From NCBI GenBank assembly GCA_002402995.1, contig DHGX01000004.1, positions 85,186 through 149,185 of the forward strand: a stretch of DNA of 64,000 nt, read 5' to 3'. Below, piece by piece: positions 8,582-62,788 of this stretch. Below the pieces are notes generated by a model, which was given only the letters and a program-made list of their open reading frames with translations, was not told where the DNA came from and ran no database searches. A program made the translations under genes and the position numbers. The stretch's first letter is position 1. Each line of letters starts with the position of its first letter. The DNA is from Patescibacteria group bacterium UBA4787. GTDB taxonomy: Bacteria > Patescibacteriota > Patescibacteriia > UBA2591 > UBA4787.

Positions 8582-8610
8582 TCGTAAAATTACGCAATTT
8601 ATCCATTAAT

Positions 8611-8694
8611 TATACCCGCTTCGCGGGTGAAATTGGGGCGCTCGGAGTCAAATCAAAAGAAGACTTTTGTCTGACATCCTCGCTACCAATTATA
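8611..8694 (+). repeat. family B dispersed intergenic repeat, copy B1 (GAGTATAAT-box element)
   Basis: Matches the consensus TATACTCGCTTTGCTTGTGAAATTGGGGCACTCGGAGTCAAATCAAAAGTAAAACTTTTGTTTGATCTCTTCGCTACCAATTATA. It lies in the divergent region between e2b2 and the AMMECR1 gene. Confidence 0.8.
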
Positions 8695-8724
8695 CCACAA
8701 TATAAAAAAATAGAGAATATAGTC

Positions 8725-15886: not shown

Positions 15887-15887
15887 A

Positions 15888-16078
15888 CCAGGTAGTAGAG
15901 ATTCGATGCTTCTCGGGGCGCGATTTATATTAAGGAATGCGATAGAAGCAAAGAATAGTTATTTTATTAATGATGAGACCAAGTAGTGTAACGAAGCGAA
16001 AAGCTTGAAACTTAATACTCCGATGCCTTGGTCGGAGTCCAGACTCTTCGACATCGGGATTGAATTTTCACTACCTGG
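15888..16078 (+). mobile_element. family A MITE, copy A1 (long form, 191 bp)
   Basis: TIRs CCAGGTAGTAGAGATTCGATGCTTC ... ATTGAATTTTCACTACCTGG flanked by CATA at 15884-87 and 16079-82. It is ~90% identical to copy A2 at 44188-44378. Confidence 0.85.
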
Positions 16079-16511
16079 CATATTTTTGTTTAGTAATATT
16101 CGGCTGCTGATTATAGAATGGATGAATTATCTTACGAAGCGCCCTTTTGCCTCCCTGTTTCTCTAAAAATTTCAATCCATTTTTAATCAATAGAAGGTTG
16201 TCTTCATCGTTTTCGTTTGCTAAGCCCACAATCGGAATTTTTAAATTATGAGCTATGAGATTGGCCGTGGTTAAGACAACTCTTATGGAAGTAAAAGATC
16301 CGGGACCATCTATCACAATGATTCCTTCAAGCGCCAAAACATTTTCATTTTCTGCTTTAAGCAAGTTTTCTATTAAATTAAGCAGGTCGCGGCGATAAAT
16401 ATTGCCTTTTGCCGAATATAATTTACCGACAATCTCCGTGTCGTTTTTATCTTTATTTTTAATAAAGGCCAAGTAGATGTCGCTTTTTACCGCGTTAATA
16501 AACAGAATCAT
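16071..16511 (-). CDS. tsaB: tRNA threonylcarbamoyladenosine biosynthesis protein TsaB (YeaZ-like)
   Basis: The core reads MILFINAVKSD...VIDGPGSFTSIRV, carrying the TsaB GPGSFTG-like motif. The ORF-track start at 16595 would read into repeat B2, so the start is placed at 16511. Confidence 0.7.
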   Translation of the reverse strand: MILFINAVKSDIYLAFIKNKDKNDTEIVGKLYSAKGNIYRRDLLNLIENLLKAENENVLALEGIIVIDGPGSFTSIRVVLTTANLIAHNLKIPIVGLANENDEDNLLLIKNGLKFLEKQGGKRALRKIIHPFYNQQPNITKQKYAR

Positions 16512-16536: not shown

Positions 16537-16684
16537 GTATAATTGGCAGTGAGGATATCAAATAAAAGTCTGCTTTTGATTTGACTCCGACTCACCTCGC
16601 TGACCCGCTACGCCAACGCGTTAGCGTGGCGAGAGCTCCGGCGAAGTGTAGCGCCCCAATTTCACGGAGCGAAGCGAGTATAAT
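16537..16684 (-). repeat. family B repeat, copy B2 (long form with nested GC-rich palindromic insert)
   Basis: Reverse orientation. It contains the insert CGCTACGCCAACGCGTTAGCGTGGCGAGAGCTCCGGCGAAG and ends with GCGAGTATAAT about 40 nt upstream of the ATG at 16725. Confidence 0.8.
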
Positions 16685-16724
16685 TATTTTATCTAAAATC
16701 AACCTAATAGTCAAAATTATATCT

Positions 16725-19091
16725 ATGGCGTTAAAAATCCAAACAGGCATTATCAACTATAAGCCAAAAATAGACAATTTATTATTCTCGTTTGCCGTTA
16801 TGAGCGATGAGCAAGATCGAGAATTACTCAATGTTATGGGGCAATTAGGTATGCTCTGGAAAATTAAAATTTCGGAAAATTTCAGTTCGAACCAATTAGA
16901 ATTAAACAAGAACTTTTCCGCCGAATTAAGCAAATTCGCCAGCAGCAGCTATTATGACCCGACCAAATTGGAAGATTTTGAAATCAATAAAAACTTCGAA
17001 GAATTATTAGAAAAAATAAATCAATGGATCAGAATAAAGAAAATTGACAGTTTTCGCCTCGATGAATTTGTTGAAAGCCTAGATATAACCATTTTTGTTT
17101 TTTTAAATAAAGAAATTAATTTTTCACAAATCGGGGTCAATCGTAATTTTTTAATCCAACCGTCACAAGAAGTTATAGAATTATCTCAAATCAACAAAAA
17201 GAAAACCGTGCCGTTTTTTCAAAATAAATTTTCTAATGTTGTAAGCGGCAACATCGAACAAGACAATCTTTTAGTTTTGGCCACCGAGGAATTTATTAAA
17301 TATTACGATTATAATAAATTAAGCGATTTATTAGCAAAAGGAATATCATTAAAAGAAATTCTATCGGAAATAAAAAAATCCGCGTCCGAAAAGAAATACG
17401 AAGAACCATTTAGTTTGTTGTTATTAAGATTGTCAGAAGATAGTAAATATGTTCCTCAAGCTGTTAAAGAAGAATCTGAACCGGAAAAAGAAAATATCGT
17501 CCAAACCGAAGATGCCGGCGAAAAAATCAAAAAACAAGAAACGATTATTGAACCCGAAAAGGAGAATGAAACAACCGAGGAAACTCAAGACAAAGACGAG
17601 AACGAAGAACAAGTTCAGGAAAGCGCCGCTATTGAATCTAAAGAGGAACCGAAAGATGCAACAGAAATTGAAAATGAGATAGAGCCACAAATTCCCGAAG
17701 AAAAAATCGAAGAGAATATCCAGGGAAAGATTTTAAACGAGAAAGACGAACAAATCAAAAATTTATTCTCAGAAGAAGAAAGTATTGATGATATTTCTGT
17801 TGATACAGACATAAATGAAGTGAAAAAACCGAAAAAGACCACATTTGTTAATCTAATCAAAGGATTTTTCAGATTGATAAAATTTATAATTTATCTTATC
17901 GGACGGGGTATTAAACTATTGTTTAATTTTTTAACTAAAATCCTATTTATCCAAAGCGCTTTCAATAAATTCAAAAAATTAAATCTCCAACAAAAAATAG
18001 CAGTCATCTTTTGTTTGATTCTGGGCGCGGCTTTTTTGGTTGGTTTATTTTATAACATTAATCTTAATTATCATAACAATAATAACCGCGAATATCGCGA
18101 TTTAATCAATAACCTCAAGAATAAAGAAGAAGAAATAAAACAAACAATCTCGCTTAAGAATGAAGCGAAAATCGGTTCTTTGTATTTAGAGTTTGAAGAG
18201 TTAACTAAAAATTTGCCCGCGATGAACGAAAGCCAGAAAAACGAATATAATATTATCCAAAAGCGGATCAACGACGAGTTGAAAAGCGCTTTAAAAGAAA
18301 ATAAACCGAGCCAGATTAAAATTTTATCAGATTTTCAGAGTATGCAAGCAGATTTATTGAATGAATTGGCTTATACAACGAAGAAGTTATATGTTTTGGA
18401 TCAAAACACTCAAATAGTCTATGCGACTGACACTTTAGACGGCAAAAAAACTGCCATTTATAAAACTCCTGCTAATTCGGCAAAAATAATAAAATTAAGA
18501 CTTACGGATCAAGACAACCTCCTAATCTTATATGACAATCAAAAACTTTCTAATATAAATCTTCTTGATAACAAATTAACCAGTCTTTCGTTGGAGACAA
18601 AGAACAAAAATTTGAAAATTTCAGATTTATTCGTCTATTCTCAAAAATTATACATTTTAGACAGCGCCGTTGGTAAAATTTTTAAATACACCAGAACATT
18701 GAACGGTTTTAGCCGTGAAGAAGAATGGCTAAAGTCCTCTACTTATAATTTAACCGGCGCATCTGGTTTTACCTCCGATGGTTCGGTTTATATTTTAACC
18801 GCCAACAATGAAATCAAAAAATTTTATACAGGACAAGAACAGGCGTTTAATTTCAAAATTACGCCTCCTTTAGAAGGCCAAGGCAATAAAATTTTAACTT
18901 CCTACGGCAATAATTACGTTTATATATTAAATCCGGAGCATGAAAGGATTATTCTAACCGATAAAAACGGGAAGATTATTAAAAAAATTAGCGATCCGGA
19001 AATAGGAAACGCGCTGAATTTCCAAATTAATGAAAAAAATAAAAAGATTTGGGTCAATACCAAGGACAAAATATTAGAATATGAAATTTAA
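16725..19091 (+). CDS. large hypothetical protein with an E/K-rich low-complexity region, internal TM segment and C-terminal repeat/beta-rich domain
   Basis: The ORF-track start at 16581 is encoded by repeat B2, so the start is placed at the MALKIQ codon at 16725. The EPEKENE acidic tract runs 17450-17800 and hydrophobic segments lie around 17850-18060. Confidence 0.55.
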   Translation: MALKIQTGIINYKPKIDNLLFSFAVMSDEQDRELLNVMGQLGMLWKIKISENFSSNQLELNKNFSAELSKFASSSYYDPTKLEDFEINKNFEELLEKINQWIRIKKIDSFRLDEFVESLDITIFVFLNKEINFSQIGVNRNFLIQPSQEVIELSQINKKKTVPFFQNKFSNVVSGNIEQDNLLVLATEEFIKYYDYNKLSDLLAKGISLKEILSEIKKSASEKKYEEPFSLLLLRLSEDSKYVPQAVKEESEPEKENIVQTEDAGEKIKKQETIIEPEKENETTEETQDKDENEEQVQESAAIESKEEPKDATEIENEIEPQIPEEKIEENIQGKILNEKDEQIKNLFSEEESIDDISVDTDINEVKKPKKTTFVNLIKGFFRLIKFIIYLIGRGIKLLFNFLTKILFIQSAFNKFKKLNLQQKIAVIFCLILGAAFLVGLFYNINLNYHNNNNREYRDLINNLKNKEEEIKQTISLKNEAKIGSLYLEFEELTKNLPAMNESQKNEYNIIQKRINDELKSALKENKPSQIKILSDFQSMQADLLNELAYTTKKLYVLDQNTQIVYATDTLDGKKTAIYKTPANSAKIIKLRLTDQDNLLILYDNQKLSNINLLDNKLTSLSLETKNKNLKISDLFVYSQKLYILDSAVGKIFKYTRTLNGFSREEEWLKSSTYNLTGASGFTSDGSVYILTANNEIKKFYTGQEQAFNFKITPPLEGQGNKILTSYGNNYVYILNPEHERIILTDKNGKIIKKISDPEIGNALNFQINEKNKKIWVNTKDKILEYEI

Positions 19092-20112: not shown

Positions 20113-20137
20113 ATTTTTTGTTTAGCATTTTTTATTA

Positions 20138-20160
20138 ATTAAAAAATCTGCGTTTAACCG
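20138..20160 (-). promoter_or_regulatory. stem-loop plus U-run in the rplJ leader (possible attenuator/terminator)
   Basis: TCTGCGTTTAACCGCAGA hairpin with T and A runs on either side, 26 nt upstream of the rplJ start. Confidence 0.3.
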
Positions 20161-20351
20161 CAGAAAAAATTAAAACCTCGATAGGCACAAATTAAGTTCT
20201 TTTCGAACACCTATTTTCTACGGTTAAGTAAAAATATTATACATAACTAATTTACCAACGTCAATAGTTTATCCACTCCGACGCTCTGGCTCGCCTCGAT
20301 TCGGCGAAGCGGGTCGGAGTCCCGATCGTCGGGGTTGACGTCGGGGCAGAA

Positions 20352-26132: not shown

Positions 26133-26198
26133 AATAAGAATTTTTATTGTATTTAATATTAAAATTAAGTGTATTTATTATATTCTATAATAATCCAC

Positions 26199-26226
26199 TT
26201 GTCAAAAAAAATCAAGCTGTTAAAAT
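26199..26226 (+). promoter_or_regulatory. putative promoter of rpmE
   Basis: TTGTCA -16 nt- TAAAAT, 12 nt upstream of the rpmE ATG. Confidence 0.35.
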
Positions 26227-28536: not shown

Positions 28537-28619
28537 CGCGTTGGCGTAGCGGGTCAGCGAGGCGAGTCGGAATCAAATCAAAAGAAGACTTTTATTTGAC
28601 ATCCTCGCTACCAACCATA
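28476..28619 (+). repeat. family B repeat, copy B3 (long form with GC-rich insert)
   Basis: It overlaps the prmC 3' end. It is the only B copy not placed upstream of a gene start, lying between convergent genes. Confidence 0.8.
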
Positions 28620-35900: not shown

Positions 35901-36178
35901 AAGAATTAATGATTTTTGCGAAAATTGAAGACGAAACGGGATCGGTTGAGTCTATAATTTTTCCTAAGATTCTTAATCTTGCACCCAGAGTTTGGGAAGA
36001 GAATAAAATCATCATTATTTTAGGCAGACTTTCCGATAAAGATAATATTAAAAAAATCATTGTTGAAGATGTGGCCGAGATAAATAAAGAAAATATCGAG
36101 AAAACAGTCAAAGACTTTGATCAATTAAGGGGTAGCTTGTCGAACAGACAAGAAAATGGTAATGTTTATTATATATAG
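32909..36178 (+). CDS. dnaE: DNA polymerase III alpha subunit
   Basis: 1089 aa with a PHP N-terminus ([13 protein letters not shown]), the polymerase core (PDIDLDF) and an OB fold. Confidence 0.95.
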
Positions 36179-36184
36179 ACTATG

Positions 36185-36349
36185 TTGGGTAGTGAAAATT
36201 CAATCCCGACGTCGAAGGGTCGGGATTTCGACCAAGGCGTCGGAGTAGTAAGTTTCAAGTTTTCCACTTCGATCTACTATCTGGTTCTATTATTAATAAA
36301 ATAACTATTCTTTGCTTCTATCGCATTCCTTGATATAAATCGCATACCT
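36185..36349 (-). mobile_element. family A MITE, copy A3 (long form, reverse orientation, gene-proximal TIR partly deleted)
   Basis: TATG lies at 36181-84. The copy is ~85% identical to the reverse complement of A1/A2 and ends 3 nt before the ATG at 36353. Confidence 0.7.
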
Positions 36350-42494: not shown

Positions 42495-42526
42495 AGGCTT
42501 GATTTATATATTGAATTATACTCGCT

Positions 42527-42601
42527 TTGCTTGTGAAATTTGGACGTTCAGAGTCAAGTCAAAAGTAAAACTTTTGTTTGAACTTCTCGCTACCAACTAT
42601 A
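42527..42601 (+). repeat. family B repeat, copy B4 (short form)
   Basis: Its TATAAT box lies about 20 nt upstream of the start of the 41763-42494 gene. Confidence 0.8.
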
Positions 42602-42650: not shown

Positions 42651-44186
42651 TTATTGTTCTATATATTTTACGCTTATTTTAGCTTCAAAAATTTGCTTCA
42701 GTAGCTTGGGATCGGCTCTATCCTTGCTATCTTTCATCGCTTGACCAATTAAAAATTGCAAAACGTTGATTCTCCCGTTTTGATATGCTTTTACCATTTC
42801 AGCGTTTTTATCAATTACTTTTTGAACGATATTTTCTATTTCTGTAGTATTGTCAACTCTTTTAAAGTCTTCGGATTGTATTATTTTATCAACATCTGCT
42901 CCAGTTATAAACATTTCTTCCAAAAGCTTTTGAGCCATAGTGCCGGAAACCTTATTTTCATAAATTAAAATAATAAATTCGGCGAAATTTTCAGGAGTAA
43001 TTTTAAGATTTTCAAAATTTTCATGGTGCGTTTGAAAAAGATAAAACAATCGATTAATAATCCAAGACGACACCAGCTTTAATAGCTTTGATCGGTGTTT
43101 CGTCCAAATTTCTTGTTCGCTATCTTCTACGGTTTCTAAAGATATAAGCCATGCTTTGAGTTCAGAAACAACATGCTCCGTGAAATCGGCCATAATTTTT
43201 TGGCTGGTCAGAATCTTCGCCTCTTCTTTGGATAAATCATAAGAGCGCTCGAATCTTTCGCGACGAATACAGGGCAATTCAGGCAAAGAAGATCTTAAAT
43301 TATTAATATTGATGAAATTGTCCACCGTCGAATCAAAAAATGGAATATCCGGTTCCGGAAAATAACGATAATCCGTTATCCCCTCTTTAATCCTTTGAAC
43401 TATAATTTTCTCTTTGTTCTCGTCCCAACCGACCGTAATTTTTCCCTGACGCCTTACAATTTCTCCCCCGGCAATATATTCTTCGTATTGGCGATTAGCT
43501 TCAAAACCTAAAGCCCTTTCCACGGCCTTAAAGGAATTTAAATTTTTAATTTCTGTGATTGGTGTTTTAATCTCTCGCTCGTCTTTATCAAAACTAATAT
43601 TGACGTTGACGTCGCAACGCATTTGTCCTTTTTCCATATCGGCATCGGAAATATTCAAATATCGGGCAATCAACTGCAATTCTTGCAAAAATATCTTTGC
43701 CTCTTCGGGAGATTTTAGATCTGGCTCAGTAACAATTTCGACTAAAGGAATACCCGAACGATTAAAATCAATTAAAGTATTATCGCCCGAGTGCGATAAT
43801 TTAGCAGTATCTTCTTCAAGGTGAATCCTGTTTAATCTTATTTTTCTGCGCTCATTTGATAAATCAATGTCTAGATAACCGCCCGCAATAATCGGATGAT
43901 CATATTGACTGATTTGATAACCCTTCGGCAAATCTGGATAAAAATAATTTTTGCGGTCAAATTTAAATTTTTCGGCCACGCGACTATTTAAAGACAAGCC
44001 CAACGAAATCGCTTGTTCAAGAGCTAGACGATTTACTACTGGCAATGCCCCTGGCTGACCAGTACAAACCGGACAAATATTGCTATTAGGATGACTCAAA
44101 TCGAGTTTATTCTCACAAAAACAAAACATTTTTGTTTTTGTTTTAAGCTCTAAATGGATTTCTAGCCCTATAATAAATTTAAACAT
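42651..44186 (-). CDS. gatB: Asp-tRNA(Asn)/Glu-tRNA(Gln) amidotransferase subunit B
   Basis: 511 aa with the GatB N-terminus (IGLEIHLEL, CPVCTGQPGALP) and a C-terminal YqeY-like domain. Confidence 0.9.
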   Translation of the reverse strand: MFKFIIGLEIHLELKTKTKMFCFCENKLDLSHPNSNICPVCTGQPGALPVVNRLALEQAISLGLSLNSRVAEKFKFDRKNYFYPDLPKGYQISQYDHPIIAGGYLDIDLSNERRKIRLNRIHLEEDTAKLSHSGDNTLIDFNRSGIPLVEIVTEPDLKSPEEAKIFLQELQLIARYLNISDADMEKGQMRCDVNVNISFDKDEREIKTPITEIKNLNSFKAVERALGFEANRQYEEYIAGGEIVRRQGKITVGWDENKEKIIVQRIKEGITDYRYFPEPDIPFFDSTVDNFININNLRSSLPELPCIRRERFERSYDLSKEEAKILTSQKIMADFTEHVVSELKAWLISLETVEDSEQEIWTKHRSKLLKLVSSWIINRLFYLFQTHHENFENLKITPENFAEFIILIYENKVSGTMAQKLLEEMFITGADVDKIIQSEDFKRVDNTTEIENIVQKVIDKNAEMVKAYQNGRINVLQFLIGQAMKDSKDRADPKLLKQIFEAKISVKYIEQ

Positions 44187-44187
44187 A

Positions 44188-44378
44188 CCATGTAGTAGAG
44201 ATTCGATGCTTCTCGGGGTGCGATTTATATTAAGGAATGCGATAGAAGCAAAGAATAGTTATTTTATTAATAATAGAACCAGATAGTAGACCGAAGCGGA
44301 AAGCTTGAAACTTACTACTCCGACGCCTTGGTCGGAGTCCCGACCCTTCGACATCGGGATTGAATTTTCACTACCTGA
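44188..44378 (+). mobile_element. family A MITE, copy A2 (long form)
   Basis: TIRs with CATA at 44184-87 and 44379-82. The gatB start codon is the CAT of the left duplication. Confidence 0.85.
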
Positions 44379-44385
44379 CATATTT

Positions 44386-45765
44386 TTAACAAGAATGCTT
44401 ACTACTTAAAACTATGACGATGGTTTTAAGTAAAATTTTAAAATCCAACCAAATAGACCATTGGCGAACATAGAAAAGATCTAACTTAACCTCCTCTTCA
44501 AAGGATAAACTTGATCGACCTGAAACTTGAGATAATCCTGTCACACCAGGTTTAATGAATAATAATTCTTTTTGATTATAATCATATCGTGAGACTTCAT
44601 CGGGTTGATGTGGCCGAGGTCCGACCAAACTCATTTGTCCCTTTAAAACATTAAATAATTGCGGCAATTCATCGATACTATAACGTCTAATAAATTTGCC
44701 GATTTTTGTCACGCGTGGATCGTTCTTCATTTTGAATAAAGGACCATCTTTTCTCTCGTTTTGCGCCATTAGGTCTTTTTTAAGTTGTTCGGCGTTTTTT
44801 ACCATAGAACGAAATTTGTATAATCTGAAAGATTTTCCCCGTTGACCGACTCGCGTTAAACCGACAAAAATTGACCCAGATGAATCAATTTTAATAATAA
44901 GGCCTAATAAAATAAAAAATGGAGACAGAGCAATCAATCCGAAAAAAGAAAAAATAATATCTAAAATTCTTTTGACTACCCTTCCCCACCCATCTAAAGC
45001 CGTTCGTTTTACTTCGATATACGGCCTGCCCATCATAGTTTCTACGGCTAGATTACTGGAAAGCGCGCCGAAGAGATCGGCGGCATACTTAAAATTTATT
45101 TGGTGTTCCTTGCAAAAAGCAATAAGACGCAAAACATCCGATCGAGATATATTAGAATCGCCCTGAATAATCTCGTCGAAACTTGAAACGCGACTAGACC
45201 AATTATTAATCAGGTCATCTACGGAAGCGGCTTGGCCGATAATATTATATCCATGTCCGAGATTTTTACGACAAGAGTTGATTAATTCTTCCACCTCCTT
45301 TCCTTGTCCTAAAATCAAGACTGGCTCTAAGCCAATGCCTTGTTTAAAAGATATTAACTGGATTAGATGAATTAAAAATCGTCCGATACTCAAAAAAACA
45401 AAAGAAGCTATCCATCCCGCTAAAATAATAAACCGAGAAGTAAAATATTCTCTTTGAAAAAACAAAAATAGAACAATTAACATAGTGCCCATAGAACAGC
45501 CAATAAAAATTTGGCTAATTTCTTGCGTAAAATGCCGTCTGTTTTTTATGCTATATAAGCCCAATAAAACAAAAATTCCTATCCAAATTAAAGCAATTAA
45601 AACGATCTTAAAAACATAATCGTTATAAGGGATCTGTGTGAATATCGGTAAAACTTCTTTAAATAACTTAAAACGCAAAAAATAAATAGATATGCCAGCC
45701 AAAACAAGCATAATAAAATCTAATGGCAATAAAGCGGTTAAAAATATAAGTCGAGATTTGCGCAT
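44386..45765 (-). CDS. undecaprenyl-phosphate sugar phosphotransferase (bacterial sugar transferase, WbaP/PglC-like C-terminal domain)
   Basis: 459 aa with N-terminal transmembrane helices and the C-terminal motif KFRSM...DELPQLFNVLKGQMSLVGPRP. Confidence 0.85.
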   Translation of the reverse strand: MRKSRLIFLTALLPLDFIMLVLAGISIYFLRFKLFKEVLPIFTQIPYNDYVFKIVLIALIWIGIFVLLGLYSIKNRRHFTQEISQIFIGCSMGTMLIVLFLFFQREYFTSRFIILAGWIASFVFLSIGRFLIHLIQLISFKQGIGLEPVLILGQGKEVEELINSCRKNLGHGYNIIGQAASVDDLINNWSSRVSSFDEIIQGDSNISRSDVLRLIAFCKEHQINFKYAADLFGALSSNLAVETMMGRPYIEVKRTALDGWGRVVKRILDIIFSFFGLIALSPFFILLGLIIKIDSSGSIFVGLTRVGQRGKSFRLYKFRSMVKNAEQLKKDLMAQNERKDGPLFKMKNDPRVTKIGKFIRRYSIDELPQLFNVLKGQMSLVGPRPHQPDEVSRYDYNQKELLFIKPGVTGLSQVSGRSSLSFEEEVKLDLFYVRQWSIWLDFKILLKTIVIVLSSKHSC

Positions 45766-45787: not shown

Positions 45788-45932
45788 TATACTCGCTTTG
45801 CTCCTAAAGTTGGGGCGCCCCGCTTCGCCATAGCTCTCGCCACGCTAACGCGTTGGCGTAGCGGGTCAGCGAGGCGAGTCGGAGTCAAATCAAAAGTAAA
45901 ACTTTTGTTTGAGCTCCTCACTACCAATTATA
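45788..45932 (+). repeat. family B repeat, copy B5 (long form with GC-rich insert)
   Basis: Its TATAAT box lies about 22 nt upstream of the sugar transferase start. Confidence 0.8.
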
Positions 45933-45985: not shown

Positions 45986-45992
45986 TGCTTAA

Positions 45993-46415
45993 ACAGGCCT
46001 ATAAGCCGAATTCTGTGCTCCCGATTTCTCGAGACGGCAATCATTTATCTAGCCTTAATATCGCTATTAAGGTCAAACGACCTACCTACTTCGTTCGCAC
46101 GAAGTTAATTTGGTCTTTCACCCAGTAAGGATTTAGCCGTTTCACCTCAAACGTTTCCATTTGAGCTACCCCCGAAGGGGCCGAAGCGTCTTTCGTTGCT
46201 TCGCGTCTCTGTTCGCACCTCTACCCCTCACTTGGGCCGTGAAAAAAAGAATATAATCATATAACATAATTATTTCCTATTTCATAGACCAAGTGAGGGG
46301 CGACGGCCGTTAACCGCTACGCTTTGTATTCCGATTTCTCGGAATATGGTGTTCGGACTTTCCTCCCCTTATTTAAAAAATAAGGAGTAATTGCCCGGCC
46401 CATTTAAACTATATA
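45993..46415 (-). ncRNA. rnpB: RNase P RNA (bacterial type A)
   Basis: The minus strand carries GGGGAGGAAAGTCCGAACACC (the P4 5' strand GGAGGAAAGUCCGG consensus) and, near the 3' end, ACAGAATTCGGCTTA (the P4 3' strand ACAGAAnnCGGCUUA). A P3 hairpin and GC-rich helices lie between them. Confidence 0.8.
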
Positions 46416-46426
46416 AATGATAGTTC

Positions 46427-46455
46427 AAAATCAATCTTTTGTCAATGTGTTCGAA
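46427..46455 (-). promoter_or_regulatory. putative rnpB promoter
   Basis: TTGACA -17 nt- TATCAT on the minus strand, ending about 8 nt upstream of the RNase P RNA 5' region. Confidence 0.45.
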
Positions 46456-51074: not shown

Positions 51075-51635
51075 CTAACGTTTTTTCCATTGCGGAGCCC
51101 GGCGCGCTCTTTTAAGGCCAGGTTTCTTTCTTTCTTTGATGCGGGCATCGCGGGTTAAAAAGCCAAGAGATTTTAAAGAATCTCTCAAATTATTATCTAT
51201 AGCAATCAAGCATTTAGCTATACCCAACCGAATGGCTTCGCTCTGCGCGCTAATTCCTCCTCCTTTTACGCGAATAATAAATTTATAATTCTTATATTCT
51301 TTAAATAAATTTAAAACATTTTCGATGTTTTTTTGCCAGGAAAAATATGGAAAATATTTTTTATAATCCTTTTTATTAACTATTATTTCGCCTAATCCAT
51401 GCCCCCAAACCTGAATTTGAGCAATAGATGTTTTTCTTTTACCGGTTGCTTGACCAACTAAAACAGGGGCGCCGGTTTTTTTAGCTTTAACAATCTCTAT
51501 TTTAGGCATTACCCTCTTCTTTAATTCAAAAGTTATTGGAATTTCTTTTTCCGGTTTTGCGACAATTTGCTTTTTTGTCTTTTTAACAGAATTTTTAGGT
51601 TTAACAATTTTTTTTGTTGTTATATTTTTGGGCAT
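51075..51635 (-). CDS. rpsI: 30S ribosomal protein S9 (with ~55 aa lysine-rich N-terminal extension)
   Basis: The C-terminus KKPGLKRARRAPQWKKR and the S9 core are present. The N-terminal K-rich tail is unusual. Confidence 0.85.
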   Translation of the reverse strand: MPKNITTKKIVKPKNSVKKTKKQIVAKPEKEIPITFELKKRVMPKIEIVKAKKTGAPVLVGQATGKRKTSIAQIQVWGHGLGEIIVNKKDYKKYFPYFSWQKNIENVLNLFKEYKNYKFIIRVKGGGISAQSEAIRLGIAKCLIAIDNNLRDSLKSLGFLTRDARIKERKKPGLKRARRAPQWKKR

Positions 51636-52061: not shown

Positions 52062-52412
52062 TTAAATTAGTTCTAAGACAGCCAATGAGGCGGCATCTCC
52101 CTTGCGTTGCGCTAATTTAATTATTCTTGTGTAGCCACCCTTTCTGTTCAAATATTTAGAACTTATCTCTTCGATTATTTTTTTAGCCAACGCTCTATCG
52201 CCAACTATGCTTATTAATTTGCGACGAGACGCCAAGTCGTTTTTCTTTCCGAGAGTAATAGTTCTCTCAACAAAGGGTTTAATCATTTTGGCTTTGGCTA
52301 AAGTGGTCTTTGAACGACCATAAATAAAAAAATTCTTTAATAGCGCCGTTTTTAATGCTCGAAGCGGACCTTTTTCGCGACCTAAAATTTTTCCCTTTTT
52401 TTGATGACGCAT
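52062..52412 (-). CDS. rplQ: 50S ribosomal protein L17
   Basis: 116 aa L17 downstream of rpoA. Confidence 0.9.
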   Translation of the reverse strand: MRHQKKGKILGREKGPLRALKTALLKNFFIYGRSKTTLAKAKMIKPFVERTITLGKKNDLASRRKLISIVGDRALAKKIIEEISSKYLNRKGGYTRIIKLAQRKGDAASLAVLELI

Positions 52413-52424
52413 GTTCTAGAAATT

Positions 52425-53141
52425 TTATTTACTTTTTTTATCAATGTAATCGCCGATATAATTAAATTGATCAGCTAACATTTTAGCTGAATTTTTGAAA
52501 GCATCCATGGGCGAGATTGTCCCATCGGTTTCTAAATCAATAATTAATTTATCATAATCTGTTCTTTTCCCGACGCGAACATTTTCAACGCGGTGGCCAA
52601 TTTTAACAATGGGCGTGAAAATTGAATCAATTAACATGCTGCCCAATTCCAAGTTGGTTCGATCTTTCTCCTCAGAAGAAATGTAGCCATACCCTCCAAT
52701 AACTTCTGCGCTAATTTCTAGGATCGCTTTTTTCTCGGTAAGAGTAGCTATATATTGATCGGGGTTTACAATTTCAATATCAGAATTTTTATCAAAATCA
52801 CCCGCTGTTACTTTTTTTTCGCCGCTGACTTTCATTTTTAACAAAACAGGAGTTTCGTCCGATTTTAAGATCTTAAATCTTAAAGATTTAAGATTTAAAA
52901 CGATTTGTAAAATATCTTCTTTGATACCCGGTAAAGTAGAAAATTCGTGTTTTACGCCATGTATCTTAACAATATTAATGGCCGCGCCTGGTAAAGAAGA
53001 AAGCATTACCCTTCTTAAGGCGTTGCCCCACGTAATACCATAGCCCGGGTAACAAGGCTCAATGATAATAGTTGCTTTGTTTTTATTTTTTGTGCCTGCC
53101 TGTTGATATTCGACTTGACCTGGTATAAATATATTTTCCAT
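52425..53141 (-). CDS. rpoA: DNA-directed RNA polymerase alpha subunit, N-terminal domain only (no alpha-CTD)
   Basis: The 238 aa protein aligns with the alpha-NTD up to the linker and then ends. rplQ follows directly, so no separate CTD is encoded. Confidence 0.85.
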   Translation of the reverse strand: MENIFIPGQVEYQQAGTKNKNKATIIIEPCYPGYGITWGNALRRVMLSSLPGAAINIVKIHGVKHEFSTLPGIKEDILQIVLNLKSLRFKILKSDETPVLLKMKVSGEKKVTAGDFDKNSDIEIVNPDQYIATLTEKKAILEISAEVIGGYGYISSEEKDRTNLELGSMLIDSIFTPIVKIGHRVENVRVGKRTDYDKLIIDLETDGTISPMDAFKNSAKMLADQFNYIGDYIDKKSK

Positions 53142-53165: not shown

Positions 53166-53798
53166 TTATCTTGAATAAAATTCAACAATTAGCCTAGTAT
53201 CAACATCCTGCGGAAGTTCTTCGTCGTCCGGGTGTTTAACTATTTTAATAGTTGCATTTTTTGCGTCTATCGTGAACCATGTTAATTCGCGTTTTTTGCC
53301 TTTGTTAGCAGCTAAATTTTCTTGAATATTTTTTCTTATTTTTGAAGATTCTTTGATGGAAATTTCGTCGCCAATTTTTACGACATAAGAAGGAATATCT
53401 AGCTTTTTGCCATTAACCCGAACATGTCCGTGGCCAATTAATTGTTTACAGGCGTTTCTCGAAGACAAGAATCCTGCGTTAAAAACAACGCTGTCCAGCC
53501 TAGTTTCTAAAAGTCTAAAAAGCTGAAATTCGGTATTACCTACACTTTTTTTTGCTTTATTAAAATAATTTTTAAGCTGTCGCTCTAATATTCCGTATAT
53601 TTTTTTTAATCTTTGCTTTTCTCGCAATTGTTGTCCGTATTCAGAAGTTCTCGGAAAACCCTTGGGACCATGTTGTCCCGGCGGATATTTTCTTTTAACA
53701 ATAGCGCATTTTGGCGAATAACATCTCTCGCCTCTTAAAAATAATTTTTTGCCTTCTCGGCGGCAAAGTTTACATTTTGGTCCGGTTTCTCTTGCCAT
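53166..53798 (-). CDS. rpsD: 30S ribosomal protein S4
   Basis: 210 aa S4 with its N-terminal zinc-ribbon-like cysteines. Confidence 0.9.
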   Translation of the reverse strand: MARETGPKCKLCRREGKKLFLRGERCYSPKCAIVKRKYPPGQHGPKGFPRTSEYGQQLREKQRLKKIYGILERQLKNYFNKAKKSVGNTEFQLFRLLETRLDSVVFNAGFLSSRNACKQLIGHGHVRVNGKKLDIPSYVVKIGDEISIKESSKIRKNIQENLAANKGKKRELTWFTIDAKNATIKIVKHPDDEELPQDVDTRLIVEFYSR

Positions 53799-53833: not shown

Positions 53834-54262
53834 TTAAACTCTTCTAACTTTCGGCGGACGGCAACCATTGTGCGGAATCGGTGTAATATCTTTTATGGTC
53901 GAAATATCCAAGCCATTCGCATGAAGAGCGCGAATCGCTGCTTCGCGTCCGGCGCCAACTCCCTTAACAAAAACTTGAACTTCTTTCAAGTCATATTTTT
54001 TGGCTTTTTCGATCGCATCTTTTACGATTATACTGGCAGCGTATGGAGTAGCTTTTTTGGGCCCACGAAATCCCATTTTTCCAGCTGCAGACCAACCCAA
54101 AACATTGCCCTGCATATCACTTATGCTGATTATAGTATTATTATAGGTTGCTTGAATATTAACCCGTCCTTTAATTATTTGTCTAACAACTTTTGAGGCT
54201 GCTGATTTTTGAACCACCTTATTTTCTTCTTTTTTTGTTTTCTTTGTTGCCATAAAAATCAA
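53834..54262 (-). CDS. rpsK: 30S ribosomal protein S11
   Basis: 142 aa S11. Confidence 0.9.
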   Translation of the reverse strand: MIFMATKKTKKEENKVVQKSAASKVVRQIIKGRVNIQATYNNTIISISDMQGNVLGWSAAGKMGFRGPKKATPYAASIIVKDAIEKAKKYDLKEVQVFVKGVGAGREAAIRALHANGLDISTIKDITPIPHNGCRPPKVRRV

Positions 54263-54278
54263 AAATTTTATTTAGGTT

Positions 54279-54668
54279 TTAGGTTTTTTGTGATGATGAT
54301 ATTCGTCCGGAACCCATAGTCTTTCTAACGTTTCCGCGAACCGTGCGAGAATTAGTTTTAGTTCGCTGTCCCCTTACTGGCAAACGCTTCATGTGTCTTG
54401 TGCCGCGATAAGCGCCAATATCTTTGAGTCTTTTAATGTTAGAAAAAATTTCGTGTTTCAATTCCCCTTCTGTTTTACAGTTTTTTTCGATCAATAATTT
54501 TAATTTCTCAACTTCTTCCGAAGTTAAGTCTTTTACTTTTTTATTTGGGTCTATACCAGCCATCGCGAGGATCTTGTTAGACAAACTTGGACCAATGCCA
54601 AAAATATGAGTTAGACCTATTTCGCTTCTTTTTTGGGGAGGTAAGTTGATACCCGCAATTCTTGCCAT
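54279..54668 (-). CDS. rpsM: 30S ribosomal protein S13
   Basis: 129 aa S13. Confidence 0.9.
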   Translation of the reverse strand: MARIAGINLPPQKRSEIGLTHIFGIGPSLSNKILAMAGIDPNKKVKDLTSEEVEKLKLLIEKNCKTEGELKHEIFSNIKRLKDIGAYRGTRHMKRLPVRGQRTKTNSRTVRGNVRKTMGSGRISSSQKT

Positions 54669-54815: not shown

Positions 54816-54975
54816 AATATACCGATAAAAACCATTAAATTAACAAAGAAAGTAAAATAATTATAATCGCTTCGCTCTTGAAATTTACTCGCTCAGGAAT
54901 CAGGTAAAAACCATTTTACCTATTCCCTCGCTCAAAAATTATACTCTAAAACAAAAAAAATGTCAATCAAAATAA

Positions 54976-55200
54976 CTAATATCGGAAAGTTATTCTACCC
55001 TTAGACAAATCATACGGACTCATTTCTATTTTAACTCGATCGCCCATGGCTATTCTAATCCGATTTAGTCTTAATCTTCCAGAAAGATAGGCCAAAATTT
55101 CTTGGCCATTATCTAATTTAACCTTAAAGGTCGTCGAAGGCAAAAGTTCTTCAATGGTTCCGTCTGATTCTAAAAATTCTTCTTTTTTGGCGTTAAACAT
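54976..55200 (-). CDS. infA: translation initiation factor IF-1
   Basis: S1-like OB fold. Two adjacent ATGs lie at 55198-55203, and repeat B6 abuts the start. Confidence 0.9.
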
Positions 55201-55285
55201 CATACTCGCTTTGCTTGTGAAATTGGGGCACTCGGAGTCAAATCAAAAGTAAAACTTTTGTTTGATCTCTTCGCTACCAATTATA
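55201..55285 (+). repeat. family B repeat, copy B6 (short form)
   Basis: It directly abuts the infA start codon. Confidence 0.8.
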
Positions 55286-55394
55286 GAAAAACTAACGTTT
55301 AATATTTTAAAACAATTATCATTCTTTGTCAATATTGCCAAAAAATTAATAAGGTCAAAACCGACTTTTAATTTCGGTTTTAAAAGTTTGGGCG

Positions 55395-56354
55395 CTAAAA
55401 ACCCACATATTCAATTTCTTCGTTCAACTCTATATTAAACTTGTCTTTGACTTTTTGTTTAATCAGACCGATTAATTTATAAGTGTCATTCGCCGTAGCA
55501 TGGTTGGCATTAATTATAAAATTCGCGTGTTTTTCGCTTATTTTTGCCCCGCCAATTCCTTGTTCCTTTAATCCTGTTTTTTCAATAAGCCAACCCGCCG
55601 GGATGGTGCCAATTTTTAAAAACCTCAAAAAATCGTCATGATATTCTGCCTCTATGGGCGCAACCATATCCGTGCTTAGGTTAATTAATTTCGCATTGCG
55701 AAATACGCAACCCGCGCTAGGTTCGAGCGGATTGTTCTTGCGCAATGCCAGATTCTTGTTCATCTCTTCGGCAATTGTCTTTTGATCTTGTTTCGCTAAT
55801 ATTATTTCCCCGCTTAAAATAATATAATTTTTATTTATCTTAAATAAACTGTATCGATAAGAAAATTCGCATTTGTCGGCGTCGAAAAAGAGTGTTTTAT
55901 TATTTTCAACATCAAAAACTTTAACACGCGGAGAATTATTCTCTATAGTTTTGCCAAAAGCTCCGGCGTTGCCGCATATTGCCCCGCCGATTGTTCCGGG
56001 AATGCCAGTCGCCCACTCCAGGCCGCTCAAAGAATTTTTAAAAGCAAAATCAACCAAAGAGCTTAAATCGACGCTTGCGTCAAATTTTAAAATTCCATTT
56101 TCGTATAAAATAGAATTTCCTTTAAATTTAATAACCAATCCCCTAAATCCTTGATCTGATATTAAAATGTTGCTGCCGTCGCCTAAAATAAAAAACGGTA
56201 TATTATTATCCCTCGCGTAAATCAAAGAAGCGCAGAGATCATCTGTGTTCCTAGGTTCATAAAAAAAATCGGCTGGGCCGCCTATTCTGAAGGTCGTATG
56301 GGGGCCCAACGCAACATTATTTTTTAAGTATTCTGCTTTAAACATCTTATTCAT
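55395..56354 (-). CDS. murB: UDP-N-acetylenolpyruvoylglucosamine reductase
   Basis: 319 aa with an FAD-binding N-terminus (HTTFRIGGPADFF, ILGDGSNIL) and the MurB C-terminal domain. Confidence 0.85.
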   Translation of the reverse strand: MNKMFKAEYLKNNVALGPHTTFRIGGPADFFYEPRNTDDLCASLIYARDNNIPFFILGDGSNILISDQGFRGLVIKFKGNSILYENGILKFDASVDLSSLVDFAFKNSLSGLEWATGIPGTIGGAICGNAGAFGKTIENNSPRVKVFDVENNKTLFFDADKCEFSYRYSLFKINKNYIILSGEIILAKQDQKTIAEEMNKNLALRKNNPLEPSAGCVFRNAKLINLSTDMVAPIEAEYHDDFLRFLKIGTIPAGWLIEKTGLKEQGIGGAKISEKHANFIINANHATANDTYKLIGLIKQKVKDKFNIELNEEIEYVGF

Positions 56355-56438
56355 TATACTCGCTTTGCGAGTGAAATTAGGGCACTCGGAGTCAAATCAA
56401 AAGAAGACTTTTGTTTGATCTCTTCGCTACTAATTATA
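56355..56438 (+). repeat. family B repeat, copy B7 (short form)
   Basis: It directly abuts the murB start codon (…GCGAGTATAATGAAT). Confidence 0.8.
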
Positions 56439-56558
56439 TCAGAAAATCTATGTTATTACTACACCATTAAAGGCATTCCGCGGCAAAAATGTAGAATCAC
56501 TTGGCTTAAAAAAGGAGAGGTGATATACTAGAATAAAGATAATCTAAACAAAAAAAAT

Positions 56559-57488: not shown

Positions 57489-57511
57489 TTGTGGGATAAA
57501 TATAAATTATG

Positions 57512-57652
57512 CCAGGTAGTGAAAATTCGATAGTGCTTTTTGCTTCGGTTCACTATTTGGTTTCATTATTAATAAAATAAATATTCTTTGCTTCCAGTTT
57601 ATTCTTTCATATAATCGCACTTTAAGAGAAGCATCGAATTTCTACTACCTGG
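57512..57652 (-). mobile_element. family A MITE, copy A4 (short form, reverse orientation)
   Basis: TATG lies at 57508-11 and 57653-56. The cysS ATG is inside the right-hand duplication. Confidence 0.85.
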
Positions 57653-57653
57653 T

Positions 57654-59042
57654 ATGTTGCAGTTTTTTAACGACTTATCCAAAAAAAAGGAGATTTTTAC
57701 GCCAATAAAAAAAAGAGGCGTTGGTTTGTATACTTGCGGACCAACGGTTTATAATTATGTTCATATCGGTAATTTAAGAACATTTCTTTTAAATGATATC
57801 TTGAGAAGGACATTGGAGTATAACGGTTATTCTGTAAAAAATATAATTAATATAACCGACGTCGGACACTTAACTTCTGACGCTGATACAGGCGAAGACA
57901 AAATGGATAAAATGTCCAAGGCGGAAGGACGCGCTCCGGAAGAAATCGCGCAATTTTTTACCGACGCCTTTTTGGCCGACATTAAAGATTTGAATATTAT
58001 CCATCCCAATGTGCTTTGTAAAGCCACGGAACATATTCCGCAGCAAATAAAATTAATTAAAAAACTGGAAAAGAACGGCTTCACCTACCAAACCTCTGAA
58101 GCCGTATATTTTGACACGGCTAAATTTCCCGAATACGGCAAAATGGCCGGTTTTAGCGAGAAAAAAACCCAGGAAGCCCAGGCCAGAGTTGAAGAAGATC
58201 CGGAAAAGAAACATCTGGCTGATTTTACCTTATGGTTTAAGCGCGTTGGCCGCCACGCCCATCATATTATGCACTGGGATAGCCCCTGGGGCGACGGCTG
58301 GCCGGGGTGGCACATTGAGTGCAGCGCCATGTCAATGTATTATTTAGGCAAAACCTTTGATATTCACGGTGGCGGCATTGATCTTCTGCCGGTTCATCAT
58401 ATTAATGAAATCGCCCAATCCGAAGCGGCCACAGGCCAGAAATTCGTTAACTACTGGGTCCATGGGGAATTTATTCTAATGGACAGTAAAAAGATGGCCA
58501 GATCAGAGGGCGGATTTATTATGCTGCAGAATCTTATTGAAAAAGGCTTTAATCCCCTTGCCTTTCGCTATCTCTGCCTTAACACCCATTATCGCACGCA
58601 ATTAAACTTCTCTTTTCAGGCCTTGGAAGCGGCCCAGAATGCTTTGAATAAATTGTATCAAGCTATTAACGACTTCCCTAAACCGCGCGGCCGCGCTCCT
58701 GAATTTGAAGAACGCTTTTTAACGGCCATAAACGATGATTTAAATATGCCATCAGCTTTAGCCGTGGTTTGGGATTTACTTAAAACAAAAAATATTAAAC
58801 CCAGCGCCAAACTAAACACTTTATTCAAGTTTGATAAAGTTTTGGGACTTAAATTTGAAGAAACCTATAACAATTCCCAGGACACGCCGGAAGAAATAAA
58901 ACTTTTAGCCCAAGACAGAGAAGAGGCCAGGCAGGAAAAAAACTGGAAGAGAGCCGATGAAATCAGAAAAAAAATCCAAGAAGCCGGCTATCTGGTTGAA
59001 GACACGCCAACCGGACCTGATATAAAAAAAATAATATTGTAG
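57654..59042 (+). CDS. cysS: cysteinyl-tRNA synthetase
   Basis: 462 aa with HIGN (HIGH-like) and KMSKS-region motifs. The N-terminus aligns with canonical CysS. Confidence 0.9.
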   Translation: MLQFFNDLSKKKEIFTPIKKRGVGLYTCGPTVYNYVHIGNLRTFLLNDILRRTLEYNGYSVKNIINITDVGHLTSDADTGEDKMDKMSKAEGRAPEEIAQFFTDAFLADIKDLNIIHPNVLCKATEHIPQQIKLIKKLEKNGFTYQTSEAVYFDTAKFPEYGKMAGFSEKKTQEAQARVEEDPEKKHLADFTLWFKRVGRHAHHIMHWDSPWGDGWPGWHIECSAMSMYYLGKTFDIHGGGIDLLPVHHINEIAQSEAATGQKFVNYWVHGEFILMDSKKMARSEGGFIMLQNLIEKGFNPLAFRYLCLNTHYRTQLNFSFQALEAAQNALNKLYQAINDFPKPRGRAPEFEERFLTAINDDLNMPSALAVVWDLLKTKNIKPSAKLNTLFKFDKVLGLKFEETYNNSQDTPEEIKLLAQDREEARQEKNWKRADEIRKKIQEAGYLVEDTPTGPDIKKIIL

Positions 59043-61459: not shown

Positions 61460-61533
61460 TGGCGGGGGCGGCAGGAATCGGACCCGCATCCTCGGTTTTG
61501 GAGACCGATATTCTACCACTGAACTACACCCCC
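61460..61533 (-). tRNA. tRNA-Trp (anticodon CCA)
   Basis: Hand-folded cloverleaf with acceptor GGGGGTG/CGCCCCC, anticodon arm TCGGT-CTCCAAA-ACCGA, T arm GCGGG-TCCGATT-CCTGC and an encoded CCA. Confidence 0.85.
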
Positions 61534-61547
61534 GCGGCTCTGCGAAA

Positions 61548-61703
61548 CTACTTTGTTTCTTTGTGTAAAGTGTGCTTTTTGCACCATTTGCAGTGTTTCT
61601 TTAATTGCAATCTTTCTTTAAGAGTTTTCTTATTCTTTTTAGAATAATAATTAATATGGCGGCACTCACTGCACTCGAATTTAATTAAATTTTCTTGTGA
61701 CAT
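61548..61703 (-). CDS. rpmG: 50S ribosomal protein L33
   Basis: The hand translation MSQENLIKFECSECRHINYYSKKNKKTLKERLQLKKHCKWCKKHTLHKETK* has the C4 zinc ribbon. It falls below the ORF-track size cutoff. Confidence 0.85.
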   Translation of the reverse strand: MSQENLIKFECSECRHINYYSKKNKKTLKERLQLKKHCKWCKKHTLHKETK

Positions 61704-61754
61704 ATTTTTTGGTTAATAAATATTGATTTAATATTTTCAACAATTTTGATAGTA

Positions 61755-61826
61755 AGCCAGCGGTCGGATTTGGACCGACGACCTACTGTTTACAAAACAG
61801 TTGCTCTACCGCTGAGCTACGCTGGC
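61755..61826 (-). tRNA. tRNA-Thr (anticodon TGT)
   Basis: Acceptor GCCAGCG/CGCTGGC, anticodon arm ACTGT-TTTGTAA-ACAGT, T arm GTCGG-TCCAAAT-CCGAC. Confidence 0.85.
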
Positions 61827-61868
61827 AAAATTTTCCAAGAACTTAAATATTGGCGTGTTGATTTTAAA

Positions 61869-61951
61869 TGGGCGGGGTAGGATTTGCACCTACGGAGCCC
61901 GAAGGCGTCAGATTTACAGTCTGATCCGTTTGACTACTCCGGCACCCGCCC
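61869..61951 (-). tRNA. tRNA-Tyr (anticodon GTA), class II with long variable arm
   Basis: Acceptor GGGCGGG/CCCGCCC, anticodon loop CTGTAAA, a long variable arm and T arm GTAGG-TGCAAAT-CCTAC. Confidence 0.8.
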
Positions 61952-61979
61952 ACATAGTTTGCCCGCCTGCCAAAGCCAG

Positions 61980-62052
61980 AGCCCACCGTCGGATTTGAAC
62001 CGACGACCTACTCCTTACCATGGAGTTGCTCTACCAGCTGAGCTAGATGGGC
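61980..62052 (-). tRNA. tRNA-Thr (anticodon GGT)
   Basis: Acceptor GCCCATC/GGTGGGC (one G-U pair), anticodon arm ACTCC-ATGGTAA-GGAGT, T arm GTCGG-TTCAAAT-CCGAC. Confidence 0.85.
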
Positions 62053-62093: not shown

Positions 62094-62121
62094 ATTATAC
62101 CTAATTAAAATAAAAAATCAA
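62094..62121 (-). promoter_or_regulatory. promoter of the tRNA-Thr/Tyr/Thr-rpmG-tRNA-Trp operon
   Basis: TTGATT -16 nt- TATAAT on the minus strand, about 35 nt upstream of the tRNA-Thr(GGT) 5' end. Confidence 0.55.
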
Positions 62122-62122
62122 G

Positions 62123-62264
62123 CCAGGTAGTAGAAATTCGATGCTTCTTAAAAAGTGCGCTTATATGAAGAAATGCGGCAAGAGCAAAAAATATTTATTT
62201 ATTAATTACTAGAACCAGTCGGTTAAAGAGAAGCAAAAAGCACTATCGAATTTTCACTACCTGG
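62123..62264 (+). mobile_element. family A MITE, copy A5 (short form)
   Basis: TIRs flanked by CAAG at 62119-22 and 62265-68. It lies immediately upstream of the tRNA operon promoter. Confidence 0.85.
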
Positions 62265-62279
62265 CAAGCCTCCTAAATT

Positions 62280-62510
62280 TTAATTACTGTTCGATGGGCG
62301 CTGACGACGATTTTTAAACCGCAATTTTAATGAATTTATATTACGTTTAAGATAATTTAAAATTAATTGTCTTTTTATCCAATAACGCTTCTCTTGCGTA
62401 AGCTGCTTTAAATCAAGAGAAGCTGCCAGCGACAACTTGGCAGATAATAATATAATAATTCTTGCCAATAAAGCGAGAATAAAAACAACTAAAATTATAT
62501 TTATTATCAT
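62280..62510 (-). CDS. hypothetical small membrane protein sandwiched between two MITE copies
   Basis: 76 aa with an N-terminal hydrophobic helix and a basic tail. Its start codon is the CAT of the A6 target duplication. Confidence 0.3.
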   Translation of the reverse strand: MIINIILVVFILALLARIIILLSAKLSLAASLDLKQLTQEKRYWIKRQLILNYLKRNINSLKLRFKNRRQRPSNSN

Positions 62511-62511
62511 A

Positions 62512-62649
62512 CCAGGTAGTAGAAATTCGGTGCTTCTTAAAGTGCGATTATTAAGAAACGCGCTGGAAGCAAAGAATTAGTTATTTTATTAATGATGGGA
62601 CCAAGCAATGGAACGAAGCAAAAAGCACTATCGAATTTTCACTACCTGG
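62512..62649 (+). mobile_element. family A MITE, copy A6 (short form)
   Basis: TIRs with CATA at 62508-11 and 62650-53. Confidence 0.85.
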
Positions 62650-62788
62650 CATAATATAGATTTAATTAACCTTACAAATTCATTTGGCATATATTATAAA
62701 ATTATTCCTCAAAATCATTTATTGTCAAGCAAGCGAGTGAAATAAAAATTTTATTTTCATTTCCGAGCGAGCGCAGACAACACAGGGT

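Follow-up and report, generated by a model that had tools for sequence, protein, structure and literature searches.

A natural RNA polymerase alpha subunit without its C-terminal domain, shared by a large group of Patescibacteria

The C-terminal domain (CTD) of the RNA polymerase alpha subunit is usually seen as a universal part of the bacterial enzyme, reading UP elements at the promoters of rRNA and ribosomal protein genes and serving as the docking point for many activators. The gene considered here, rpoA, lies in a 64,000-nt stretch (positions 85,186 to 149,185 of contig DHGX01000004.1, hereafter the window) from the genome of Patescibacteria group bacterium UBA4787, and encodes an alpha subunit that ends before this domain begins. 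In characterized systems the polymerase assembles and transcribes at a basal level with the alpha N-terminal domain (NTD) alone, while contacts with UP elements and activators require the CTD (PMC8321222; PMC4495994). Studies summarised in PMC4495994 suggest that the CTD is essential for the viability of Escherichia coli as well as of Bacillus subtilis. The closest functional analogues of the window protein are the laboratory CTD truncations of alpha from these two species, E. coli alpha(1-235) and the B. subtilis RpoA-del, which have the same structural end point, the last residue of the window protein corresponding to residue 240 of E. coli alpha. These fragments build core enzyme and sustain basal transcription, but not transcription stimulated by UP elements or by class I activators (PMC8321222; PMC4495994). 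Those truncations were engineered, whereas the one in the window is natural, fixed and under purifying selection.

Natural loss of the CTD has been described for the endosymbionts Hodgkinia and Tremblaya, and a single sentence of the same paper (PMC8321222) states that the loss "is also present in Parcubacteria", naming Euglena chloroplasts as well. As in the window, the insect endosymbionts and Parcubacteria combine a reduced genome with an alpha subunit that has kept its NTD and lost its CTD naturally, and the Euglena RpoA, as far as that citing sentence describes it, is an alpha without CTD encoded by an organelle gene. The publication cited there for Parcubacteria (Nelson & Stegen 2015; PMC4508563) contains in its main text no mention of rpoA, polymerase or alpha. 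Beyond the sentence in PMC8321222, the literature searched contained nothing that links Patescibacteria or the Candidate Phyla Radiation (CPR) to the alpha-CTD, or alpha to AT-hooks, and no analysis of the distribution, tail replacement or selection of patescibacterial CTD-less alpha subunits was found in it. The window alpha is a conserved CTD-less subunit of the kind already mentioned in passing for Parcubacteria. A more distant likeness is offered by archaeal Rpo3 (subunit D) and eukaryotic Rpb3/AC40, which share the two-domain platform (dimerisation domain plus insert), have no DNA-binding CTD and act as assembly platforms only; these pair with a separate Rpb11/L partner, whereas bacterial alpha forms a homodimer.

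The window rpoA gene and its product

The rpoA gene occupies 52425..53141 on the minus strand and encodes 238 amino acids (aa), recognised as an alpha subunit with the N-terminal assembly domain only from its open reading frame (ORF), Pfam and NCBIfam matches and predicted fold. The ORF starts with ATG, the protein ends in ...SAKMLADQFNYIGDYIDKKSK and the TAA stop is found at 52427-52425. Between this stop and the start of rplQ is a spacer of 12 nt (AATTTCTAGAAC; 52413..52424, minus strand), the rplQ ATG at 52412 being the 13th nucleotide past the rpoA stop, and there is therefore no space for a CTD. An earlier sequence-only reading of the window had described a 238-aa product that stops after the alpha NTD with rplQ immediately behind it, and the ORF, Pfam matches and alignment all bear this out.

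PF01193 was matched by residues 28-226 of the protein (E 2.4e-20), interrupted by PF01000 at residues 58-176 (E 8.5e-31), and the alpha-CTD family PF03118 gave no match in it even at E <= 1. The NCBIfam rpoA models, which span 298-344 positions, were matched over their first ~211-239 positions only. TIGR02027 passed its cut-off (240.6 bits against 227.8, model positions 2-211 of 298), and the PRK05182 sub-models fell under theirs (e.g. 264.4 against 277) because the final third of each model remained unmatched. Assignment to archaeal subunit D was rejected, the corresponding models scoring 34.3 bits against 153 (NF001988) and 22.8 against 194 (NF011548).

The end point of the protein was located by comparison with known alpha chains. 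Residues 20-234 correspond to E. coli alpha 21-236 in the Protein Data Bank (PDB) comparisons, and in the multiple alignment the last residue, K238, falls at E. coli residue 240, within the inter-domain linker. Only 13 residues (FNYIGDYIDKKSK) follow the conserved Phe, and the protein has neither a basic low-complexity tail of at least ~25 aa nor a C-terminal [KR]G[RK][PL][KR][KR] motif. An AlphaFold2 model built on 30 homologues (mean predicted local distance difference test score, pLDDT, 90.5; predicted template modelling score 0.80) reproduces the complete fold of the alpha NTD, which ends in a long helix at residues 211-237, and all 50 of the best Foldseek matches to it in the PDB are RNA polymerase alpha chains (template modelling scores 0.74-0.87, E down to 1e-27). 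The arginine that touches beta in E. coli, R45, is R44 in the window protein, and both it and the NALRR motif are invariant across the alignment. By every criterion but the CTD the protein is an alpha orthologue, so that this is a case of domain loss inside the RpoA family.

The short gene is also conserved. Four independent assemblies (ENA, 162 kb; JGI, 25 kb; two Logan runs) contain 0 mismatches across the 1080-nt rpoA-rplQ segment. Comparison with an orthologue of 94% amino acid identity gave a synonymous divergence (dS) of 0.33 and a ratio of nonsynonymous to synonymous divergence (dN/dS) of 0.08, and an orthologue of 89% identity gave a dS of 1.13 and a dN/dS of 0.05. The identical TAA stop and the 12-nt spacer length are retained at the orthologous loci L091 and L093. 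The short rpoA is under strong purifying selection.

CTD loss among relatives and the tails found in its place

PF03118 is absent from 118 of the 120 best clusters of homologues at 90% identity, in which protein lengths range from 231 to 312 aa and all members that carry a name are patescibacterial; the nearest named homologues of the window alpha are labelled "Patescibacteria group bacterium". CTD loss is therefore a trait of a large patescibacterial clade and not of one genome, a breadth that the sequence-only reading had not included. A scan of species-representative genomes returned, among the matches listed, relatives at up to 52% identity. Among these listed matches, CTD-less rpoA genes occur in genomes labelled Veblen-, Uhr-, Moranii- and Magasanikbacteria and in several labelled Parcubacteria, and the CTD profile described below finds the domain retained in Microgenomates, Pacebacteria and some Parcubacteria. 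All of the non-patescibacterial genomes fetched have kept the CTD except for one apparently frameshifted Chloroflexia gene (L020). At the level of 50%-identity representatives, the best 150 include about 45 that have a charged tail and no CTD, and many others of the 150 without a detectable CTD resemble frameshifted or chimeric gene calls. Public rpoA calls with out-of-frame or chimeric-looking C-terminal parts include L020, from a Chloroflexia metagenome-assembled genome (MAG), and P0187, P0200, P0201 and P0233; alpha subunits that look short or odd outside Patescibacteria are therefore frequently artefacts of assembly or gene calling, and length by itself is not evidence for CTD loss.

The reading preferred here, to which we assign a probability of roughly 80%, is that CTD loss was ancestral to a large patescibacterial clade and that the window alpha is a functional subunit reduced to its assembly module. 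In a neighbour-joining tree of the NTDs the patescibacterial sequences that bear a CTD branch off close to the base. The window protein falls, together with its two close orthologues, among sequences with lysine-rich tails, and a second tail-less cluster, of the Uhrbacteria type, among sequences with acidic tails; this nesting suggests that tail loss is secondary and repeated, and the window lineage appears to be one of those in which a tail was secondarily lost.

These tails, defined as the sequence past the last NTD helix, were aligned and classed for the window protein and its 120 homologues (n=121). The largest class, with 67 members, is lysine-rich, often with KKxVKK repeats reminiscent of histone H1. 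A further 24 tails are of an AT-hook type, in which an acidic or mixed spacer leads to a terminal motif such as KKKRGRPKK, and the remainder are acidic (12), mixed (8) or essentially absent (8), with a true helix-hairpin-helix CTD in only two of the 121. The patescibacterial alphas with lysine-rich or AT-hook tails have NTDs 51-64% identical to that of the window protein and share its operon and its CTD loss. They differ from it in carrying 25-87 extra residues past the last NTD helix, either as KKxVKK repeats or as an acidic spacer followed by KKKRGRPKK, where the window protein has none.

The motif [KR]G[RK][PL][KR][KR] occurs in 24 of the 121 tails, always inside the last 15 residues, against 0.26 +/- 0.48 occurrences when these tails are shuffled with their composition preserved. 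In four relatives the tail end is matched by the Pfam AT_hook model below its threshold (7.9-11.8 bits against 17.4), as is to be expected for a model of 13 residues, and it is therefore the shuffle test that carries the case for the motif. Since G/C-rich codons are required for the RGRP core, the tails are not read-through of an A-rich spacer. In an AlphaFold model of one AT-hook-tailed relative (P0099), residues 233-272 have pLDDT values below 50; the tail is thus predicted to be disordered, which would fit a flexible tether. AT-hook ends of the KKKRGRPKK type on a disordered acidic tether were noted in P0051, P0054, P0063, P0067, P0080, P0092, P0099, P0103, P0104 and others, and at loci L005, L006 and L017. 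Neither AT-hook nor lysine-repeat alpha tails were found described in the literature searched, and these tails at the position of the CTD, the more novel element of the comparison, are the basis of a hypothesis drawn from sequence. It is possible, at somewhat less than even odds, that the alpha-CTD was replaced in much of Patescibacteria by non-homologous, disordered DNA-binding tails, in the form of a single terminal AT-hook on an acidic tether or of H1-like lysine repeats, which could keep the polymerase on AT-rich upstream DNA by way of the minor groove, and that the tail was then dropped in the lineage of the window and, independently, in some lineages of the Uhrbacteria type.

Promoter recognition and other features of the window

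In the mechanism proposed here, a dimer of the window alpha, held together by the Rpb3/RpoA-type dimerisation domain, would scaffold beta and beta' in the manner of E. coli alpha 1-235. This core-assembly role is the most likely one by homology and fold. With neither linker nor helix-hairpin-helix CTD in its alpha, the enzyme would make no UP-element contact, nor could activators that work by contact with the alpha-CTD recruit it. Given the established roles of the CTD, the polymerase would therefore lack UP-element contacts and class I activation through alpha, and promoter recognition should be by sigma alone, presumably through its contacts with strong -35 and -10 elements. Any regulation would then have to work by way of sigma, the alpha-NTD, beta or beta', or take the form of repression or attenuation. 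The claim that the missing CTD implies promoter use independent of it, made in the sequence-only reading, accordingly holds, in that the gene is real, selected and CTD-less and the consequence follows from the established roles of the domain.

The gene order around rpoA is canonical (infA-rpmJ-rpsM-rpsK-rpsD-rpoA-rplQ-rplM-rpsI), and all of the genes with coordinates given in this paragraph lie on the minus strand. Directly upstream of rpoA is rpsD, encoding S4 (53166..53798; PF00163 and PF01479), preceded by rpsK, encoding S11 (53834..54262; PF00411 in the identical locus L001), and rpsM, encoding S13 (54279..54668; PF00416 in L001). The first gene past the promoter is rpmJ, encoding L36 (54702..54815; 37 aa), which was read from the sequence between infA and rpsM and is missing from the ORF list, the minimum length of which was 40 aa. 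Downstream of rpoA are a complete rplQ, encoding L17 (52062..52412; PF01196 positions 4-97 of 97, E 7e-28), rplM, encoding L13 (51641..52042; PF00572 in L001), and rpsI, encoding S9 (51075..51635; PF00380 in L001).

A perfect TTGACA-17-TATAAT sequence (12/12) is present on the minus strand in the infA-rpmJ intergenic region at 54938..54966 and is likely, judged from its sequence and position, to be the promoter of rpmJ-rpsM-rpsK-rpsD-rpoA-rplQ-rplM-rpsI; a rough composition-based estimate of the chance expectation of a 12/12 match in the 6.5-kb stretch is ~0.02. Also on the minus strand, a second perfect match lies upstream of rpsB-tsf (26177-26205), and 11/12 matches lie upstream of the RNase P RNA gene (46417-46445), the L10 leader (20236-20264) and infA (55304-55332). 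Eight of the 11 matches to TTGACA-N16-18-TATAAT at 11/12 or better, including both perfect ones, are intergenic, in a window of which 8.5% is intergenic. Such near-consensus candidate promoters are consistent with recognition by sigma alone. In the upstream 30 nt of 12 predicted promoters the AT content is 71%, compared with 68.5% for the intergenic background, so that no UP-like AT enrichment over background was seen in this small sample.

The sequence-only reading had further connected the missing CTD with promoters borne on repeats, and this link was not upheld. The best sites are intergenic pairs of near-consensus -35 and -10 elements that occur as single copies, and the 12/12 match ahead of the rpoA operon is itself single-copy and belongs to no repeat family; the repeats carry at most TATAAT, with no conserved -35, and have no bearing on dependence on the alpha-CTD. 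The repeats in question form an intergenic family of ~90-100 nt with copies at 8605-8703, 28580-28619, 42515-42601, 45846-45932, 55195-55293 and 56349-56447. Read on the minus strand the repeat starts with TATAATTGGTAGCGAGGA... and ends with ...GCGAGTATAAT; it opens with TATAAT, upstream of which no conserved -35 is found, and its fold is a long hairpin that is conserved (AATTGG...CCAATT). Five of the six copies lie directly upstream of a minus-strand gene (the IF-2B-like gene, two unnamed ORFs, infA and murB), and the repeat runs into the ATG of infA and of murB. An Rfam scan of the window returned no family for the intergenic repeats, and the element could be a shared 5' leader or resemble a miniature inverted-repeat transposable element. 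A second intergenic repeat family, of up to 204 nt and 92% identity, was observed at 15884-16087, 44184-44387, 62119-62266 and 62508-62651 and in inverted orientation at 36170-36338 and 57497-57654 (families D1, D6-D9, D11 and D20), with some copies adjoining the tRNA cluster.

Other features detected on the minus strand of the window include a class A RNase P RNA (45986-46406; 122 bits), four clustered tRNA genes (61463-62052) and an L10 leader upstream of rplJ-rplL (20132-20241). An AMP/thymidine-phosphorylase-like gene (6046-7572, minus strand; Glycos_transf_3 and PYNP_C) stands next to an IF-2B-family gene (7589-8581, minus strand), a pairing reminiscent of the nucleoside-salvage/form III RuBisCO pathway, which has frequently been reported from CPR genomes. 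Two large ORFs, at 16581-19091 (plus strand, 836 aa) and 15020-15886 (minus strand, 288 aa), had no Pfam match at E <= 0.001.

Alternative explanations and significance

The short gene might be the product of a sequencing or assembly frameshift, or of a recent truncating mutation that left a pseudogene, the real alpha being ~320 aa in length. An A7 homopolymer does lie just ahead of the rpoA stop, and public MAGs do hold frameshifted rpoA genes, such as L020, with its cut CTD, and several out-of-frame tails among the 50%-identity representatives. Removal of one base from the A7 run would, however, add only ~15 residues running into rplQ, and insertion of one would lead at once to a stop. Since rplQ is complete and begins 12 nt past the rpoA stop, no frameshift could bring back a CTD of ~90 aa, and there is no CTD-coding DNA between rpoA and rplQ in the window, L091 or L093. 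The orthologues have a broken A-run (GATAAACAAAGT) and yet the same stop and spacer, with dN/dS values of 0.05-0.08, the four independent assemblies are identical, and the CTD is likewise missing from 118 of 120 relatives. The probability left to such an error or decay is close to nil, and the artefact near the 3' end of the gene that the sequence-only reading had named as a danger to its claim is excluded. Alternatively the gene may be split, with the CTD encoded elsewhere, either by itself or as part of a different polymerase-associated protein. CTD profiles, built from 3 sequences and then from 69, were searched against six frames of the window and ~12 kb of flanks from the same contig (~76 kb in total), in which they found nothing significant, and the 69-sequence profile had no match within 3 kb on each side of five other CTD-less rpoA genes. 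Positive controls gave E values of 1e-18 to 1e-22, and the domain was detected, at E 1e-10 to 1e-34, in the ~60 intact non-patescibacterial rpoA genes fetched and in several from Patescibacteria. A marginal match (E 0.05-0.06) at 13300-15069 was rejected as the helix-hairpin-helix region (HHH_8/HHH_5) of a DNA polymerase of the PolX family, which is encoded at 13297-15060 on the minus strand and carries a PHP domain (HHH_8, DNA_pol_B_thumb, PHP). A search with the CTD of one CTD-bearing relative (P0108) against a collection of 5.8 billion proteins returned zero matches, not even P0108 itself, and is uninformative as to stand-alone CTDs. The separately encoded CTD against which the sequence-only reading had warned is thus absent from these ~76 kb, though that is a part and not the whole of the genome, the longest contig carrying this protein being 360 kb. 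Relatives have non-homologous tails at the position of the CTD, which points to replacement and not relocation, and a CTD without a tether could presumably not recruit polymerase; a split gene is considered very unlikely.

A second, full-length rpoA paralogue whose product forms a heterodimer with the short copy has a precedent in the two alphas of Francisella, the solved polymerase of which contains two distinct alpha chains (6wmp chains A and B), and it too could lie beyond the ~76 kb searched. The short gene is nevertheless the one in the canonical ribosomal protein operon and is under strong purifying selection, and a close full-length paralogue would be expected among the nearest 120 clusters, from which CTD-bearing forms are nearly absent, making this arrangement highly improbable. 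It is also conceivable that a different DNA-binding protein, small, basic and docked on the polymerase, makes the upstream contact in trans, so that an AT-rich upstream element stays in use. The lysine-rich and AT-hook tails on the alphas of relatives suggest that contact with upstream DNA is useful in the clade, and the DNA upstream of the predicted promoters is AT-rich (71%); this AT content is, however, not above the intergenic background and no candidate protein was identified within the window, so that the proposal is purely speculative and, in our judgement, unlikely.

Several points weigh against an ancestral loss that has left the window alpha as an assembly module. The neighbour-joining tree carries no support values and the CTD-bearing P0108 falls inside the CTD-less group, which makes the order of losses uncertain. 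With ~76 kb searched and a longest contig of 360 kb, a separate CTD or second rpoA elsewhere has a low but real probability. The case for the window enzyme is built on sequence and predicted structure. The promoter inference draws on about 12 pattern matches, and an upstream AT content indistinguishable from background neither proves nor disproves the absence of UP-like elements.

For annotation, the finding means that short patescibacterial rpoA genes are not to be flagged as partial or frameshifted. If the replacement of the CTD by tails is true, the clade would provide a natural series, from CTD through AT-hook or lysine-rich tail to no tail, along which one could test whether bacterial transcription needs contacts with upstream DNA. 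The tails of the relatives offer a testable case of a folded DNA-binding domain swapped for a disordered one. A radiation of bacteria without the alpha-CTD would show that promoter recognition by sigma alone can sustain a cell. It predicts regulation without class I activators, and the genomes are worth searching for strong consensus core promoters.

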